This document shows, in pieces, positions 1-8,077 of a DNA stretch of 25,613 nucleotides. Made by a program: the position numbers and the translations under genes. The notes under the pieces were generated by a model that was given only the letters and a program-made list of their open reading frames with translations, was not told the DNA's origin and searched no databases. How positions within the stretch are numbered: the first letter of the stretch is position 1; each line of letters opens with the position of its first letter. This stretch comes from a virus (lineage: Duplodnaviria; Heunggongvirae; Uroviricota; Caudoviricetes), in the IMG/VR virus record IMGVR_UViG_3300031993_000018, positions 1-25,613 of that record; one strand, 5' to 3'.

Positions 1-2232
1 GAACCTGAACCGGAATCAAAGACTTATTATTATAATATATTGGTAATAGATAATGATAATGATAACCCAATATCAGGAGTTGGAGTCAAGTTGTATAAAA
101 ATATTGGTACAACTCCCTGGAAAAAGTATAAATGTAACTATTGTGGATATGTTTATGGGGATTATTATCTTTCTGTAATTGGTGCTACTTGTCCAAACTG
201 TGGTAACCAAATAATTGTGGAGCAGACTATAAACACTACTACAAATGCAAATGGATTCATATCCATCCCAATGGAAAATCAAATATCAGCACCTTCCAAT
301 ATATATGCAAGGATTGATGATTCCACTAAACCAGAGGGATATGAAGATGGAGAAGAGGGTAATTATGTAGTTCCAATGGATAATGAAAGTACACCTGGAT
401 GTACTATTGCACTTACACCAATTCAACCTGACTATTATACTTTCCATTTTAGGTTCATTGACAAAATTTCAAAATTTGCCATTGGCAATATGTCTGTCAG
501 AAGGGGAAATGTTGGAAATTCATTTTCTATTGGAACAGTGGATGGTTATGGAAACTATGTATATACCACCACTGATATAAGTTTTGAATTATATATCCCA
601 GAACAGTCAGGATACAAGAGTTTTCATGAACAATATACTTATACCTCCGGAAGTTACTATGAAATAGAACTTGAACCCAAGAATACAATAAGGGTTATGG
701 ATGGTGACATACCAAAGGGAAATATCAGGGTTAAGATAACATATAAGGAAAACAATGAGGATAGGGAATGGACATTTGTAACATTTAATGAAGATGACAA
801 TAAAGGTTATATACAAACTTTATCTTCAACTGTATATGATTCTGGTAATAAATATTGGGTAGAAGTAATAGGTTATTCCAGTATTGGAAAATATATATTA
901 CCTGGAGATAACATACTTGATGTATCTCAAATTCCAGATTCAGGAGATGAACCGGTGATACCAGATGATACTGATAGAATTGTAAAATCAGTATATGGAA
1001 ACTTTGAAGAAGTGTCTGTCAAAAATATCAAGGAACATATCAATATTGGAAATGAGGTTCTGGAAGAGATATATAAAAACAATTATAATAATGAACAGAT
1101 TGATGTAGAGGGCAATAAGGTATCATATAAAGGTGGAAATGATTATAGAATCAAGATTGTTGACCCTGATTCCATAAATGTGTATGATATATTTGAGGGT
1201 ACATATATTGATACCAATGACAGTCAAAATTCAATAGGTTCAATGGACATCAAGTTAAAAGATGATCCTAATGAATTGAGATTGAAGATAATTAACAGAT
1301 ATTCCGGTTATTATAATCCTATTTTCAAGGATATCCTGTTTTATAACAATATGGTCACAAAGGATGGTGTGAAATGTCCTTATTCAAACACATCATTTGA
1401 TTACAACTATAAGGATAACTATGGTAAGTTTGGAGTAATCAACAATATGTGGTTTCATAAGGCAAATGACAATAAGAAAATCAGGATTATCAATACAACT
1501 GAACCATATTATCCATTAACTGGACAATATGCCCTTGATAGTAGGGATTATAACATCTTTGAGACTAATTGGGATAACAGACATTATACCAAACAGGTTG
1601 ATGTTGAAACATCTCAACCTTGTGACAACATAAGCAGTATGAAGGATGGTCTGTGTATGTTTGGATCCAAGTATCTCAATGTACCTGAAACTATAGAAAT
1701 AAATTATCTCACACTTGGACTGGATTCCAGTTGGAATGGTGAATGGAATGATGATTATATCACACAACCCAAGATGTGTCCCGGTGAGATTATGTTCAAG
1801 GAAGTGAATGGTAACAGTGTTGATTTTTATATATTCCTGAAGAAGAGAATAATAAGATTCTTCCAGGAAATATTGTATGATGAATTCAAAAAGTATATTT
1901 CAAACCAACATTCATTTGGTAATAAAGAAGGTATTGAGGATGACATTGAGGAATATGTGGAAAAGAACATTTTGAAACTCTACAGACTTGAAAGGGTGAG
2001 AGTTTTTGTCAGAAGAATAAAGAGAGGTATACATGACAGCAAGATTGAGAACAACTATGGTGCTTATCTTGATAAGAATGTCACATATTTCAGACAGCAT
2101 GGTTTTGTGGAGACAAACAATGTTAGACTGACCAAAATCAACACAGATGCCTTTGACAGGAAACTGGTATATAACCTGAAAACCGGATACCAGGAAGATT
2201 TCGGATTTGCCTTTATTTTGAGAAAGATATAA
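1..2232 (+). CDS. Large putative virion structural protein, 5'-truncated (Ig/prealbumin-like modules, CxxC-CxxC insert)
   Basis: Frame is open from base 1 (EPEPESKTYYYNILVID...), so the TTG at 40 is probably not the true start. Beta-rich modules of the 'NPISGVGVKLY...TTTNANG' type; ends TAA. Confidence 0.55.
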   Translation, partial: EPEPESKTYYYNILVIDNDNDNPISGVGVKLYKNIGTTPWKKYKCNYCGYVYGDYYLSVIGATCPNCGNQIIVEQTINTTTNANGFISIPMENQISAPSNIYARIDDSTKPEGYEDGEEGNYVVPMDNESTPGCTIALTPIQPDYYTFHFRFIDKISKFAIGNMSVRRGNVGNSFSIGTVDGYGNYVYTTTDISFELYIPEQSGYKSFHEQYTYTSGSYYEIELEPKNTIRVMDGDIPKGNIRVKITYKENNEDREWTFVTFNEDDNKGYIQTLSSTVYDSGNKYWVEVIGYSSIGKYILPGDNILDVSQIPDSGDEPVIPDDTDRIVKSVYGNFEEVSVKNIKEHINIGNEVLEEIYKNNYNNEQIDVEGNKVSYKGGNDYRIKIVDPDSINVYDIFEGTYIDTNDSQNSIGSMDIKLKDDPNELRLKIINRYSGYYNPIFKDILFYNNMVTKDGVKCPYSNTSFDYNYKDNYGKFGVINNMWFHKANDNKKIRIINTTEPYYPLTGQYALDSRDYNIFETNWDNRHYTKQVDVETSQPCDNISSMKDGLCMFGSKYLNVPETIEINYLTLGLDSSWNGEWNDDYITQPKMCPGEIMFKEVNGNSVDFYIFLKKRIIRFFQEILYDEFKKYISNQHSFGNKEGIEDDIEEYVEKNILKLYRLERVRVFVRRIKRGIHDSKIENNYGAYLDKNVTYFRQHGFVETNNVRLTKINTDAFDRKLVYNLKTGYQEDFGFAFILRKI

Positions 2233-2244
2233 AAATTGATTCAT

Positions 2245-2511
2245 ATGGAAAATGTATTGAGACTTCCGGTAAATGAATACTGGTACAATCTGATAAAGGA
2301 TGGTGAACTGACCCATGATTATAGGGAGGTGAAACCATATTGGGAAAAGAGACTTGAAGACAAGACCTATGATGTGGTTGAGTTCTACCATAGGTTCAAG
2401 AAGGATATTCCCCCTATGAGGTTCAAGTTTGAATGGATAAAGAAAGGAAGACTGGTGAACTACAATATGGATGCCTATATAATCAAGTTTGGAGAAAGGA
2501 TCGAACGGTAA
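2245..2511 (+). CDS. ASCH/PUA-like domain protein
   Basis: LxLPVxxxWYNLIKDGELTHDYREVKPYWEKRL resembles the ASCH GxKxxExR region. ATG at 2245 preferred over TTG at 2236. Confidence 0.7.
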   Translation: MENVLRLPVNEYWYNLIKDGELTHDYREVKPYWEKRLEDKTYDVVEFYHRFKKDIPPMRFKFEWIKKGRLVNYNMDAYIIKFGERIER

Positions 2512-2521
2512 ATGTAATGAT

Positions 2522-2863
2522 ATGGCAAAAGATCATCAGCAACAGAGAATACCCGGAATAAGATGTCCTTATTGTGGTAATTTTATTCCGACATCAATAC
2601 AACAGATTTTATTTTCATCCTGTTTGTTCTGCCCCACCTGTGGACTTAAACTCAACATAGATAAAAGGAAATCAGATAAGGCATTACAGATTCTTGCAAA
2701 GGTTGATGAAGCACAAAGAAGGGTGGAAGATGCTTCCCGTTTCAGAAACAGTATAACTCCAAAAGAGGAAAGTGGGTTTACGGATGAACAGGTTGAAACC
2801 ATAAACAGTGCATTGAATGATATAATCTTTGAGGACCTGGAAGTAAAAGAGACTGAAAACTAA
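2522..2863 (+). CDS. Zinc-ribbon protein (CPYC...CPTC) with C-terminal helix
   Basis: Two CxxC pairs. ATG at 2522 avoids overlap with the upstream gene; followed by a terminator. Confidence 0.65.
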   Translation: MAKDHQQQRIPGIRCPYCGNFIPTSIQQILFSSCLFCPTCGLKLNIDKRKSDKALQILAKVDEAQRRVEDASRFRNSITPKEESGFTDEQVETINSALNDIIFEDLEVKETEN

Positions 2864-2876
2864 TCAGTCTCTTTTT
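2845..2876 (+). terminator. Rho-independent terminator
   Basis: AAAAGAGACTGA-aaactaa-TCAGTCTCTTTT, 12-bp inverted repeat ending in a T tract. Confidence 0.8.
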
Positions 2877-2886
2877 GTTATATTTA
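2874..2886 (+). promoter_or_regulatory. Putative early/middle promoter TTTGTTATnTTTA
   Basis: Same 13-mer at 2874, 6636, 9838 and 10884, each 16-28 nt before a + strand start. Resembles the Bacteroidota -7 element TAnnTTTG. Confidence 0.65.
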
Positions 2887-2905
2887 CTGTGTTAAACAGT
2901 TTAAT

Positions 2906-4750
2906 ATGGAGAAATATACAAAAGAGAATCCTTTAAAAGTATTCACCACATTTTCCGGTTATGACTCACAATGCCTGGCCTTGAAGAAAGCAGGTATTCC
3001 CTTTGAACTGATAGGGTGGAGTGAGATTGAGAAGAGGGCGATTGAAGCCCATAACCTCATATTTCCTGAATATAAGGACAGGAATTATGGTGACATATGC
3101 AAGATAGACTGGGAAAATGTCCCTGATTTTGATTTCTTTACTTATTCATCACCTTGTTTTGTTGCAGGTACATTGATACAGACAAAAGAAGGATTGAAAA
3201 ATATTGAAGATATTGAAGAAGGTGATGAGGTATTAACTCATACAAACACTTACCATAAGGTTATTACACCTATGGATAAGTTATTTGGAGGTACATTATA
3301 TCACATTAAATCTGCTAATGGTGAAATAATATGTACACCAGAACATCCATTTTATGTAAGAGAATTATCTTATAAGTATGTTGACAGAAAACATAATAAA
3401 GTAAGAGAGTTTGGTAATCCTATTTGGAAACAGGCAAAAGACCTTACAAAGAAAGATTATCTTGGTACACCAGTTAATCAGGAATCCAAACTTCCTGAAT
3501 GGAATGGTGTTGAAGACAACAGATGGGGACATCACAAGAATTCAAACAAGTTATCAGAACTTTTCACAAACAACAGTTTCTGGTATCTTATGGGTAGATA
3601 TATTGGTGATGGTTGGACAAATAAAACTGTTAATAAATCAACAGGGGAAATAGGTTCAAGAGGAATAAAAATATGTTGTAGTAAAAAGAAAGAAACAGAT
3701 AAAACAACTCTTGGAAATGCCTTAAATAATTGTGGTTTGAATTATTGTGTTGTTGAAGAAAGAACAGTATATAAATTTCAGATTGTTTCAAAAGAGATTT
3801 GGGAATTTGTTCAAAGATATGGAAGTGGAGCAGATGGAAAATTTATAGATATTGATACAATAAATTTACCAACTGAATATCTTAAATCATTTGTTGATGG
3901 TTATCTTGACAGTGATGGTTATTATAACAAAAGAGATAATACTTATGGTATAACAACAGTAAGTAAGAAACTTGCATATACATTTGGACAGTGTATAAAT
4001 AAAGTTTATCACAAGCCTGTTAGAATGCAATTTTGTAAATTACCAGATACACATATTATTGAAGGAAGAATTGTAAATCAAAAGAGTTTTTATCAGGTTA
4101 GATTTAAAATTGAAACCCATAAACAAGACCAGGCATTTTATGAAAATGGATATATATGGTCTCCTGTTAATACACATAAAAATGGTATAACAACAGAATT
4201 TGTTGATTCTTGTGTAGTATATAATATGGAGGTTGATGGAGATAATTCATATGTAGCTAATAATTATATTGTACATAATTGTCAATCATTCAGTATTGCC
4301 GGTAAGATGCTTGGTGGTGAGGAAGGTTCGGGTACCAAGTCATCACTCCTGTGGGAATGTAAGAAGGCAATTGACATCAAGAAACCAAAATACCTGATGT
4401 TGGAGAATGTAAAGAACCTGGTATCAGAAAGGTTTATGGAGACATTCAATCTCTGGCTCAAATACCTGGAATCAAGAGGTTATACCAATTACTGGAAGAT
4501 ACTGAAAGGTTCTGACTATGGTATTCCCCAGGACCGTGAGAGGGTGTTCTGTGTATCCATCCTGAAACCGGAGGGTGAATTTGTGTTCCCGAAGGGATGG
4601 AAATTGGATAAGAATACCCTTGATTTTATGCAGACCAAGGAGGAGATAGGCCAGGATCTCTGGGATAAGTTGGTTGACCCCCAGGAGAATACTGACATCT
4701 ATATCAGGGACAATGAACAGTTCAAGAAATTCGCAGCAATACAGAAATGA
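2906..4750 (+). CDS. DNA cytosine-C5 methyltransferase, N-terminal subunit (motifs I-VIII), intein-containing
   Basis: FSGYDSQ (motif I), YSSP|CQSFS (IV, interrupted by intein), LMLENV (VI), PQDRERVF (VIII). Lacks motifs IX-X. Confidence 0.92.
   Translation: MEKYTKENPLKVFTTFSGYDSQCLALKKAGIPFELIGWSEIEKRAIEAHNLIFPEYKDRNYGDICKIDWENVPDFDFFTYSSPCFVAGTLIQTKEGLKNIEDIEEGDEVLTHTNTYHKVITPMDKLFGGTLYHIKSANGEIICTPEHPFYVRELSYKYVDRKHNKVREFGNPIWKQAKDLTKKDYLGTPVNQESKLPEWNGVEDNRWGHHKNSNKLSELFTNNSFWYLMGRYIGDGWTNKTVNKSTGEIGSRGIKICCSKKKETDKTTLGNALNNCGLNYCVVEERTVYKFQIVSKEIWEFVQRYGSGADGKFIDIDTINLPTEYLKSFVDGYLDSDGYYNKRDNTYGITTVSKKLAYTFGQCINKVYHKPVRMQFCKLPDTHIIEGRIVNQKSFYQVRFKIETHKQDQAFYENGYIWSPVNTHKNGITTEFVDSCVVYNMEVDGDNSYVANNYIVHNCQSFSIAGKMLGGEEGSGTKSSLLWECKKAIDIKKPKYLMLENVKNLVSERFMETFNLWLKYLESRGYTNYWKILKGSDYGIPQDRERVFCVSILKPEGEFVFPKGWKLDKNTLDFMQTKEEIGQDLWDKLVDPQENTDIYIRDNEQFKKFAAIQK
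3155..4279 (+). mobile_element. Intein (375 aa) with LAGLIDADG homing endonuclease
   Basis: Starts CFVAGT, block B CTPEHPFY, LAGLIDADG motifs LMGRYIGDG and FVDGYLDSDG, ends YIVHN followed by Cys. Confidence 0.95.
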
Positions 4751-5217
4751 GTAGGATAAAGGAAGAAAAGAAGGTAAAGGGTAAACAGTCCAACTATGTA
4801 AACACCAATGTGAAGGAGTTTGACGGTGACAGTTGGGCAACTGAAACAAACCTGTTTGGTGAGACCCCAGAAGAGGCCACCCCAGAGAAGTTCCCCCATC
4901 TGGTACAGTTGGGTAATCTCCATATTGACAGGACAGGATTCTACAATCCTCAGGATACCAGAGTATATTCCCCAAAGGGTACATGCCCCACACTCACACT
5001 GTCATTCAGTCCCAGATTCCTTATTCTTGATGATGGGGAATACAAGGTCAGGAGACTGTCTGGATTTGAGTCAATGAGACTGATGGGATGTGAGGATGAG
5101 GATATCCAGAAACTGGTTGATGGTGGACTCAGCAACAACCAGTTGGCACAATTGGCTGGAAACAGTATTGTTGTTAATATAATGAGTGAAATGTTCAAAA
5201 GTATGATAAAAGTTTAA
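4747..5217 (+). CDS. DNA cytosine-C5 methyltransferase, C-terminal subunit (TRD plus motifs IX-X)
   Basis: RVYSPKGTCPTLT (TRD), VRRLSGFESMRLMG (IX), QLAGNSIVV (X). ATGA overlap with the upstream subunit. Confidence 0.9.
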   Translation: MSRIKEEKKVKGKQSNYVNTNVKEFDGDSWATETNLFGETPEEATPEKFPHLVQLGNLHIDRTGFYNPQDTRVYSPKGTCPTLTLSFSPRFLILDDGEYKVRRLSGFESMRLMGCEDEDIQKLVDGGLSNNQLAQLAGNSIVVNIMSEMFKSMIKV

Positions 5218-5239
5218 GAGTGTGAAATTTCACACTCTT
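5216..5239. terminator. Bidirectional terminator / perfect 24-bp palindrome
   Basis: AAGAGTGTGAAA|TTTCACACTCTT between convergent genes. Confidence 0.75.
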
Positions 5240-7195: not shown

Positions 7196-8077
7196 ATGGC
7201 AAATTTTCAACCAATCATAAAATGGAGTGGAAGTAAGAGGAGTCAGTGTGATGAAATACTGTCTTACTTTCCACAGAAGATAGACACATACTATGAACCG
7301 TTTTGTGGTGGTTGTTCTATGTTGATGTGTCTGCTTAATTCCGGATGGAATGTGAAGAGATATGTCTGTTCTGACCTCAATGGTGACCTCATAAATCTCT
7401 GGAATGAGATAAAGGACAATCCTGAAAAAGTTTATACCACTTATGTCAATTTGTGGAATGAACTGAATAAGGATGATGATGTTGACAGAAAGAGGAAGTT
7501 CTTTGAAGAACAGAGGGATATCTACAACAAGGAACATTCACCATATGTATTCTTTTTCATAATGAGGACTACCACAAACGGTATGCCCAGGTACAACAGG
7601 AATGGTGAGTTCAACAATGGTTTCCATCTGACCAGGAATGGTATTGAACCCCAGAGACTTGAACCAATCCTTATGGACTGGAGTAACAAGTTGAAGAAAT
7701 TCAGGGTGGAGTTCAGACATTGTTCATATGAGGAGATCCTGGATCAGGCAAAAGAAGGTGACCTGGTGTATATGGATCCCCCTTACTTCAATACAAAAGG
7801 TATGTATTATGGTGGAATAGACTTCCCTGTATTGTTCTCAAACCTCAAATCATTGTGTGACAGGAATATCAGGTATGTGATGTCATTTGATGGAAAGTCC
7901 GGTAATGTTGACAATACTTGTGATGTACCTGAAGATTGTTATGTTTCCCATATGTACATCAAAAGCGGAAACTCATCATTCAAGAGAACCATAGGAAAGG
8001 ACAAAAATGCCATTGTGTATGAGAGTCTTTATCTCAACTATAAAGAAAATAATTTGTATAATATAAGATTGTGGTAA
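7196..8077 (+). CDS. dam: DNA adenine methyltransferase (Dam/D12 family)
   Basis: PIIKWSGSK, YYEPFCGG and VYMDPPY motifs; target specificity not determinable from sequence. Confidence 0.9.
   Translation: MANFQPIIKWSGSKRSQCDEILSYFPQKIDTYYEPFCGGCSMLMCLLNSGWNVKRYVCSDLNGDLINLWNEIKDNPEKVYTTYVNLWNELNKDDDVDRKRKFFEEQRDIYNKEHSPYVFFFIMRTTTNGMPRYNRNGEFNNGFHLTRNGIEPQRLEPILMDWSNKLKKFRVEFRHCSYEEILDQAKEGDLVYMDPPYFNTKGMYYGGIDFPVLFSNLKSLCDRNIRYVMSFDGKSGNVDNTCDVPEDCYVSHMYIKSGNSSFKRTIGKDKNAIVYESLYLNYKENNLYNIRLW

Follow-up and report, generated by a model that had tools for sequence, protein, structure and literature searches.

CpG loss specific to one phage sub-lineage, with candidate cytosine-5 methyltransferases

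Why has a phage genome lost most of its CpG dinucleotides, and could a methyltransferase encoded in the same DNA have caused the loss? The question arises from a 25,613-nt stretch (the window, positions 1-25613) that lies at the start of a virus record of 153,613 nt in IMG/VR (IMGVR_UViG_3300031993_000018; the whole record is called G000 below) and that encodes a two-gene cytosine-5 (C5) methyltransferase. A preliminary description of this DNA had proposed that the phage enzyme methylates CpG almost globally and has done so for long enough for deamination to erode the methylated sites, with CCGG spared by an unusual specificity. Its tally was reproduced exactly when we recounted bases 1-5220: 23 CG are present, against 150.5 expected from composition (it had estimated roughly 100 or more), giving an observed/expected ratio (O/E) of 0.15 and a Poisson P of about 2e-38. 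Eleven of the 23 lie in CCGG, nine have one C or G flank (ACGG 3, TCGG 2, CCGA 2, CCGT 2) and three have neither (TCGA, GCGA and TCGC, one each). The trend does continue, as that description had suggested, across the whole window, an unstranded CpG-depleted feature spanning 1-25613 with 156 CG (O/E 0.19), 46 of them within CCGG.

Across all of G000, CpG O/E is 0.28 (GpC 0.54, TpA 0.71, CA/TG 1.32), and it is at most 0.60 in every 4-kb window. Among the NCGN words, CCGG stands at an O/E of 1.51 and all other contexts at 0.07-0.46. Two of the checks that the preliminary description had proposed, a correction for codon usage and a search for excess TG/CA, came out in its favour: the deficit persists at all codon positions (O/E 0.28 at positions 1-2, 0.23 at 2-3 and 0.23 across the 3/1 junction) and after synonymous codons are shuffled within genes (548 junction CpG observed vs 2234 expected), and the TG/CA excess is present, at the value of 1.32 given above. 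In the same shuffles, 248 CCGG were observed vs 178 expected. Because non-palindromic contexts (ACGA/TCGT, 0.13-0.17) are depleted as much as the palindrome TCGA (0.14-0.23), a dinucleotide-level process is indicated.

We compared G000 with four whole or near-whole relatives (G001, G002, G003 and G005) and with further records (G411, G412, G413, G414 and G415), drawing on the closer relatives of 185-412 kb that IMG/VR contains; a metagenome scan for closer relatives yielded short contigs only. CpG O/E is 0.31 in G001, 0.19 in G002 and 0.11 in G411, next to 0.28 in G000, and other sequences (ten metagenome contigs, three virus records) range from 0.05 to 0.30. The non-depleted relatives are G003 (0.85), G005 (1.09) and G412 (0.78). 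Codon-shuffled junction CpG also separates the groups, at 0.17-0.33 of expectation in G000, G001 and G002 and 0.92-1.05 in G003 and G005. The loss is accompanied by the products expected of C-to-T change at CpG, with CA/TG at 1.32-1.34 in the three depleted phages vs 1.18 in G003 and 1.02 in G005. GpC (0.54-0.62), TpA (about 0.7) and low RGCY, CTAG and TTAA are alike in all five phages, so that the depleted and non-depleted groups differ only in CpG and its deamination products, the other signatures being common to both. Among 51 genome samples of Bacteroidales, the likely host order (L232-L291; 20 kb per genome), CpG O/E ranges from 0.56 to 1.26, with a median of 0.89. Because sister phages and sampled Bacteroidales keep CpG, the loss is specific to one phage sub-lineage, and is neither clade-wide nor general in the sampled Bacteroidales.

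We put at about 0.5 the probability that the loss is driven by a CpG-directed process specific to the phage lineage, self-methylation and subsequent deamination being its likeliest form. Under this reading, CpG would have eroded to TpG/CpA over the long term and throughout the genome in one rumen giant phage sub-lineage. The driver would most likely be cytosine-5 methylation of CpG by one or more phage-encoded methyltransferases, and the resulting 5-methylcytosine would become thymine by deamination, a change that uracil repair would not reverse. In keeping with such a process, the depleted group has modules or variants of C5-methyltransferases which other relatives lack. The earlier proposal of long-term CpG methylation by a phage enzyme therefore holds to the extent that the data are best read as a phage-borne process directed at CpG; its two narrower claims, that the window's own enzyme is the cause and that this enzyme disfavours CCG/CGG, fared less well, as set out below.

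The same loss could instead reflect selection, a possibility that we consider less likely: a host defence, whether many CG-containing restriction sites or a reader of very short CG words, would penalise CpG in DNA that enters the cell, with CCGG protected or not a target. Site avoidance is plain elsewhere in the clade (no GATC in the 363 kb of G005, no CTAG in the 400 kb of G001, and very low RGCY, GCGC and CGCG), but CpG depletion is nearly uniform over palindromic and non-palindromic contexts and resembles the host NCGN profile scaled down, unlike the effect of a discrete set of sites. A TG/CA excess would also be expected under selection, transitions being the commonest escape, and a replacement test at four-fold sites, whose baselines differed too much, gave no preference to pure mutation. 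Sister phages that come from the same samples and have the same background signature are nevertheless not depleted, and it is the depleted clade that carries extra C5-methyltransferases.

The phage itself can be placed through the genes of the window, which include a T4-type large terminase, a clamp loader, an SbcC-like protein, a dUTPase and a gp21-like protease fragment; the completeness of G000 is estimated at 64%. By terminase (30-40% identity), the nearest database phages are uncultured phages of 460-640 kb, Tenacibaculum phage PTm1 and the Prevotella Lak phages. In none of the five phages is a Shine-Dalgarno signal enriched between -20 and -5 (9-16%, equal to the control region), and in all five the leaders before start codons are A-rich. 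A missing Shine-Dalgarno signal together with A-rich leaders is typical of Bacteroidota and their phages. Given this missing signal, a Bacteroidales-like excess of CCGG and avoidance of CTAG, and the Tenacibaculum and Prevotella phage relatives, the host is likely to belong to Bacteroidales. One 20-kb query against 401 Bacteroidales genomes returned conserved-gene similarity only, with no match to a spacer of clustered regularly interspaced short palindromic repeats (CRISPR). The depleted sub-lineage is one of rumen giant T4-like phages, about 350-410 kb in size, that probably infect Bacteroidales.

A host of this kind raises the further idea that the depleted phages infect a CpG-poor bacterium and share its mutational or selective regime. 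Passages of PMC11282364 describe phage CpG content as generally tracking that of the host, and these phages mirror Bacteroidales in CCGG excess and CTAG avoidance. We nevertheless consider such mimicry very improbable: for a host order that is itself assigned from sequence signals, none of the 51 samples (20 kb each) falls below 0.56, vs 0.11-0.31 in the phages, and depleted and non-depleted phages are alike in every other signature. GpC depletion in the phages is also not host-like (host median about 1.11-1.14), and the phages therefore do not simply copy host dinucleotides.

If the phages methylate themselves, the first candidate enzyme is the one in the window. This A/B pair (the METHYLTRANSFERASE) consists of two open reading frames (ORFs), 2906-4750 and 4747-5217, which overlap by ATGA. 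The subunit A ORF holds motifs I-VIII and is interrupted by an intein. Its N-extein (2906-3154, + strand) runs from motif I (FSGYDS) to the TYSSP of motif IV; the intein (3155-4279, + strand), of 375 aa with Cys1, a LAGLIDADG domain and a C-terminal HN, sits directly before the catalytic Cys of PCQ; and the C-extein (4280-4750, + strand) contains that Cys (CQSFS), GSGTKSSLLWE, ENV, QDRERVF and the start of the variable region, its stop overlapping the start of B. The junctions read TYSSP/C...HN/CQSFS, the catalytic Cys being the +1 residue of the intein. Subunit B (4747-5217, + strand; 156 aa) carries the recognition core (NPQDTRVYSPKGTCPTLTLSFSPRF) and motifs IX and X (GNSIVV). Pfam PF00145 matches the whole subunit A ORF at E 6e-43 and subunit B at E 9e-4, TIGR00675 matches intein-free orthologs, and motifs I, IV (PC), VI (ENV), VIII (QxRxR), IX and X (GNS[IV]) occur in canonical order, as in other C5-methyltransferases. 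As in the two-chain enzymes of the M.AquI type, separate conserved genes encode motifs I-VIII and the recognition domain with motifs IX-X, and association of the two chains is predicted.

More than 100 metagenomic variants, and two phage clades, retain both chains. The A/B split is also found in G001, G002, G005 and G412, and a fused relative of 397 aa (P0124) exists; for subunit B alone, the predicted structure has a mean predicted local distance difference test (pLDDT) score of 57, too low for searching by fold. The intein is present in G000 and G002 (G002:172776-173900; 82% identical), with none in G001 (G001:332496-333212), and its presence makes no difference to CpG depletion. The absence of CG from the 1125-bp intein, remarked on earlier, was borne out for 3155-4279, and is only weakly notable, about 3.4 being expected at the local O/E.

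Can the specificity of this enzyme be read from its sequence? The preliminary description had likened it to M.SssI and M.MpeI. M.MpeI is indeed the best solved-structure match for both halves (subunit A, E 3e-16; subunit B, E 3e-4) and the only one for subunit B, in a PDB that contains few bacterial C5-methyltransferases. Among 1.8 billion representatives, however, at least 150 clusters (50% identity) match subunit B at E 6.5e-10 or better, closer than M.MpeI, several of them with tandem recognition domains, and the fused homolog P0124 scores about equally against M.HhaI (2.6e-26) and M.MpeI (8e-25). M.MpeI recognises its site through loop 1 (F302/S304/E305) and loop 2 (G322-A323-N324-S325-R326), the latter reading the G of CG (PMC10899764). 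Aligned to loop 2, subunit B has S-F-S-P-R-F where M.MpeI has G-A-N-S-R-I, and the loop is thus not conserved; the features in common are an acidic residue (D70 for E305) and a VY...G..PTLT frame that is widespread among recognition domains. The motifs on which the likeness had been based are common throughout a large subfamily of phage C5-methyltransferases. Given the closer clusters, the parity between M.HhaI and M.MpeI and the difference in loop 2, 'SssI-like', judged by sequence, is a resemblance at the level of the subfamily and no evidence for CG specificity.

Several observations weigh against self-methylation as the driver. The match of subunit B to M.MpeI is no better than E 3e-4, loop 2 differs (SFSPR vs GANSR), and the specificity of an enzyme is not readable from its sequence. 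The A/B pair is ancestral, with the same gene order in G005 (small ORF, A, B, clamp loader, ClpC-like, SbcC-like); the G005 proteins are 71% (A) and 56% (B) identical to those of the window, with 78% identity in the recognition core, yet CpG O/E in G005 is 1.09. Either a change in loop 2 or in motif IV (PCQ vs PCT) altered specificity or activity, or the A/B pair is not the cause. All depleted genomes belong to one clade, so that the association between depletion and enzyme is effectively a single evolutionary event; an independent lineage with the same recognition half was not found in IMG/VR, species-representative genomes or 50%-identity representatives, where the close homologs are all in this clade. 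In the four-fold-site replacement test, mutation predicts that T alone takes the place of lost C, and selection that all bases do so in proportion; the baselines from the two non-depleted phages are too far apart. Among the depleted phages, orthologous proteins share only about 67% identity; synonymous sites are therefore saturated and rates of CpG-to-TpG and TpG-to-CpG change not comparable.

Within the clade, the recognition half of the pair does follow depletion closely. Every relative examined whose B subunit is at least 79% identical is depleted (CpG O/E 0.05-0.31), and the loop TLTL[SA][FI]SPRF occurs in genomes or contigs that are all depleted (14 of 14), whereas neither of the two that have CMAPK or CMPLK as the loop is depleted. 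A second, modular set of C5-methyltransferase genes accompanies it in G001, G002, G411, G413, G414 and G415, about 40 kb upstream of the A/B pair; its presence was judged for depleted relatives whose homologous region was recovered. This kit (L033:4932-11733, which is G001:284932-291733; G002:127680-133475; G411:42704-50006) comprises a 418-aa enzyme, interrupted in G411 by an intein-sized insert, a second catalytic half (A2) whose motif IV has PCT, separate recognition/C-terminal halves of 177, 125 and 72 aa, and an ORF of 112 aa that is similar to a recognition domain. Non-depleted relatives are mostly without it, and G003 has only a fused A2+177 form. By synteny, the kit would lie just past the 5' end of the G000 contig, because that is its position in relatives. 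Two candidates, the A/B pair and the kit, co-occur in one clade. The attribution of the depletion to the window's own gene is not supported, given its syntenic ortholog in G005 and this second set; the A/B pair may be the responsible enzyme, and the kit equally so.

Is CCGG truly spared? The non-depleted relatives already have CCGG at an O/E of 1.57 (G003) and 2.15 (G005), which is 1.38-1.41x the codon-shuffled expectation, and in the Bacteroidales samples the median is 2.12 (interquartile range 1.46-2.69, with values up to 6). In depleted phages the ten NCGN classes rank much as they do in Bacteroidales (r 0.93-0.98 on log O/E). The apparent sparing is thus mainly a matter of baseline: CCGG tops the NCGN words in both the phage clade and Bacteroidales, and is scaled down like the rest. 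Relative to its non-depleted value, NCG/NTG stands at 0.13-0.27 for N=C, 0.10-0.15 for N=A and 0.11-0.23 for N=T. CTG/CAG shows the largest gain among the NTG words (from 0.83-0.95 to 1.51-1.55), and this gain, with the fall in CCG/CTG, means that CCG itself decayed, about 4-8 fold. CCGG/(CTGG+CCAG) fell 2.5-6 fold, and the equivalent ratio for TCGA 7-12 fold.

Fitted log-linearly to the host baseline, per-strand retention by 5' neighbour is 0.63-0.87 for C, 0.45-0.57 for G, 0.41-0.56 for T and 0.34-0.38 for A. The flank effect is real but modest, with loss roughly two-fold weaker per strand after C. Of the earlier claim that CCGG is spared through an unusual specificity, this roughly two-fold effect is the part that survives; the excess already present in non-depleted relatives and Bacteroidales and the 4-8-fold decay of CCG speak against the rest. 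The residual effect could stem from a preference of the enzyme, from duplex stability, or from the same force that maintains the abundance of CCGG in Bacteroidales and non-depleted phages. Vsr-type repair was considered as a cause of CCGG retention and ruled out, as no Vsr was found in six phage records, and the sampled Vsr-positive Bacteroidales (Vsr is present in 93 of 401 genomes) are not richer in CCGG; the Bacteroidales-wide excess of about 2-fold is unrelated to Vsr presence. A separate observation concerns CCWGG, which is 3.1-3.6x over-represented in G000, G001 and G002 and at 0.45-0.56x in G003 and G005 (host median 1.64). Decay of CCCGG/CCGGG may contribute to the excess in depleted phages, and the low values in G003 and G005 resemble EcoRII-type avoidance.

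These results bear on the strongest form of the preliminary model, in which the window's A/B pair is a near-global CpG methylase intrinsically averse to CCG/CGG and has recorded that aversion in the genome. We think this unlikely. The loop associations just described fit it (14 of 14 and 2 of 2), and the groups differ, among other things, in recognition loop 2, which in M.MpeI reads the G of CG (PMC10899764). That M.MpeI is the sole solved structure to match subunit B also speaks for it, although the sequence family is not specifically SssI/MpeI-like. Its flank preference finds some footing in the residual effect (per-strand C 0.63-0.87 vs A 0.34-0.38), but CCGG sparing is mostly baseline, the CTG/CAG gain shows that CCG decayed, and wild-type M.MpeI has no 3'-flank preference (PMC10899764). 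The syntenic G005 ortholog, 78% identical in the recognition core, sits in a non-depleted phage, and the second methyltransferase kit accompanies depletion wherever the region was recovered. Equally doubtful is the broader proposal of a phage-encoded C5-methyltransferase, two-chain or modular, that would act on nearly every CpG of a roughly 400-kb genome with a built-in flank bias of WCG > GCG > CCG.

How does this system compare with known ones? M.MpeI and M.SssI, the CG-specific enzymes of Mollicutes, have the same C5-methyltransferase fold as the A/B pair, with an SLLWE-type motif, ENV, QxRxR and GNSI. A passage of PMC11282364, citing Wojciechowski et al. 2013, reports CpG under-representation in the Mycoplasma penetrans genome. 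Like that carrier of M.MpeI, G000 is poor in CpG and rich in TpG/CpA (O/E 0.28, CA/TG 1.32), whereas the ortholog-bearing G005 stands at 1.09. Unlike M.MpeI and M.SssI, the A/B pair is split into two chains, intein-bearing and phage-borne, with SFSPR in loop 2 and a putative CG specificity, and the closest relatives of subunit B are not the known CG methylases. M.AquI is a naturally split C5-methyltransferase, its two polypeptides divided in the variable region. The A/B break likewise falls after motif VIII and before the recognition core; the pair departs from the M.AquI type in that its genes overlap by ATGA, subunit A has an intein at the catalytic Cys, and related phages have several alternative recognition halves beside a second catalytic half. 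A passage of PMC5944983 describes engineered complementing fragments of M.SssI and M.MpeI.

In magnitude (O/E 0.2-0.3) and in TpG/CpA compensation, the loss resembles the decay of vertebrate CpG through deamination of 5-methylcytosine; it differs in occurring in a virus of bacteria, in its flank order (A, T > G > C) and in that methylation is here a proposed step. Phages and chloroviruses are known to carry 'orphan' methyltransferases for frequent sites, such as M.CviPI for GpC and M.CviJI for RGCY. Like lytic phages that avoid restriction sites, the clade avoids GATC, CTAG, GCGC, CGCG and RGCY and has very many methyltransferases (in G005, 7 C5, 8 N6/N4 and 2 D12 matches). Unlike such avoidance, the CpG loss affects the dinucleotide as such, does not depend on palindromy and comes with an excess of products, whereas the RGCY/GpC loss occurs without GT/AC excess. 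All ten NCGN classes fall below baseline, which is not the pattern of site avoidance; GATC, CTAG and RGCY do show that pattern.

Other word biases were noted as well. GpC O/E is 0.54-0.62 in five phages (G000-G003 and G005) vs a Bacteroidales median of 1.11 in 41 samples and 1.14 in the set of 51, and the loss is concentrated in RGCY (AGCT about 0.2, AGCC/GGCT 0.32-0.40, GGCC 0.3-0.6), with TGCA at about 1.0-1.4. An excess of GT/AC beside the GpC loss was not found in the five phages, and the loss looks like clade-wide avoidance of a CviJI-like word. CTAG has 16 sites in the 153 kb of G000 and none in G001, and the Bacteroidales median is also low, at 0.11; TAG serves as the stop in only 3 of 227 called ORFs. 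The window also encodes a Dam-family (D12 class) N6-adenine methyltransferase (7196-8077, + strand), and GATC O/E is 0.59 in the phage carrying it. G005 has a 72%-identical homolog (G005:135409-136230), and its GATC count is 0, as is that of G003; either the G005 homolog has a specificity other than GATC, or the avoidance of GATC has a different cause.

What the loss means depends on its driver. For the CCGG abundance of Bacteroidales phages in general, the host order's roughly 2-fold excess is the standard against which to judge before specificity is called. If selection is responsible, the depletion points to a host factor that reads a two-base word. If a flank-biased phage methylase did write it, a signature like that of vertebrate CpG decay has been inscribed in one rumen giant phage clade, and this would be the first case in which the specificity and flank preference of a phage methylase are legible from the erosion of its own genome. 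If methylation more broadly drives the loss, a natural split CG-type methylase would be of interest as a tool, and these phages would amount to a natural experiment in which blanket self-methylation, blunting many restriction systems, carries a measurable mutational cost that reshapes codon usage across a whole genome of 150-400 kb.

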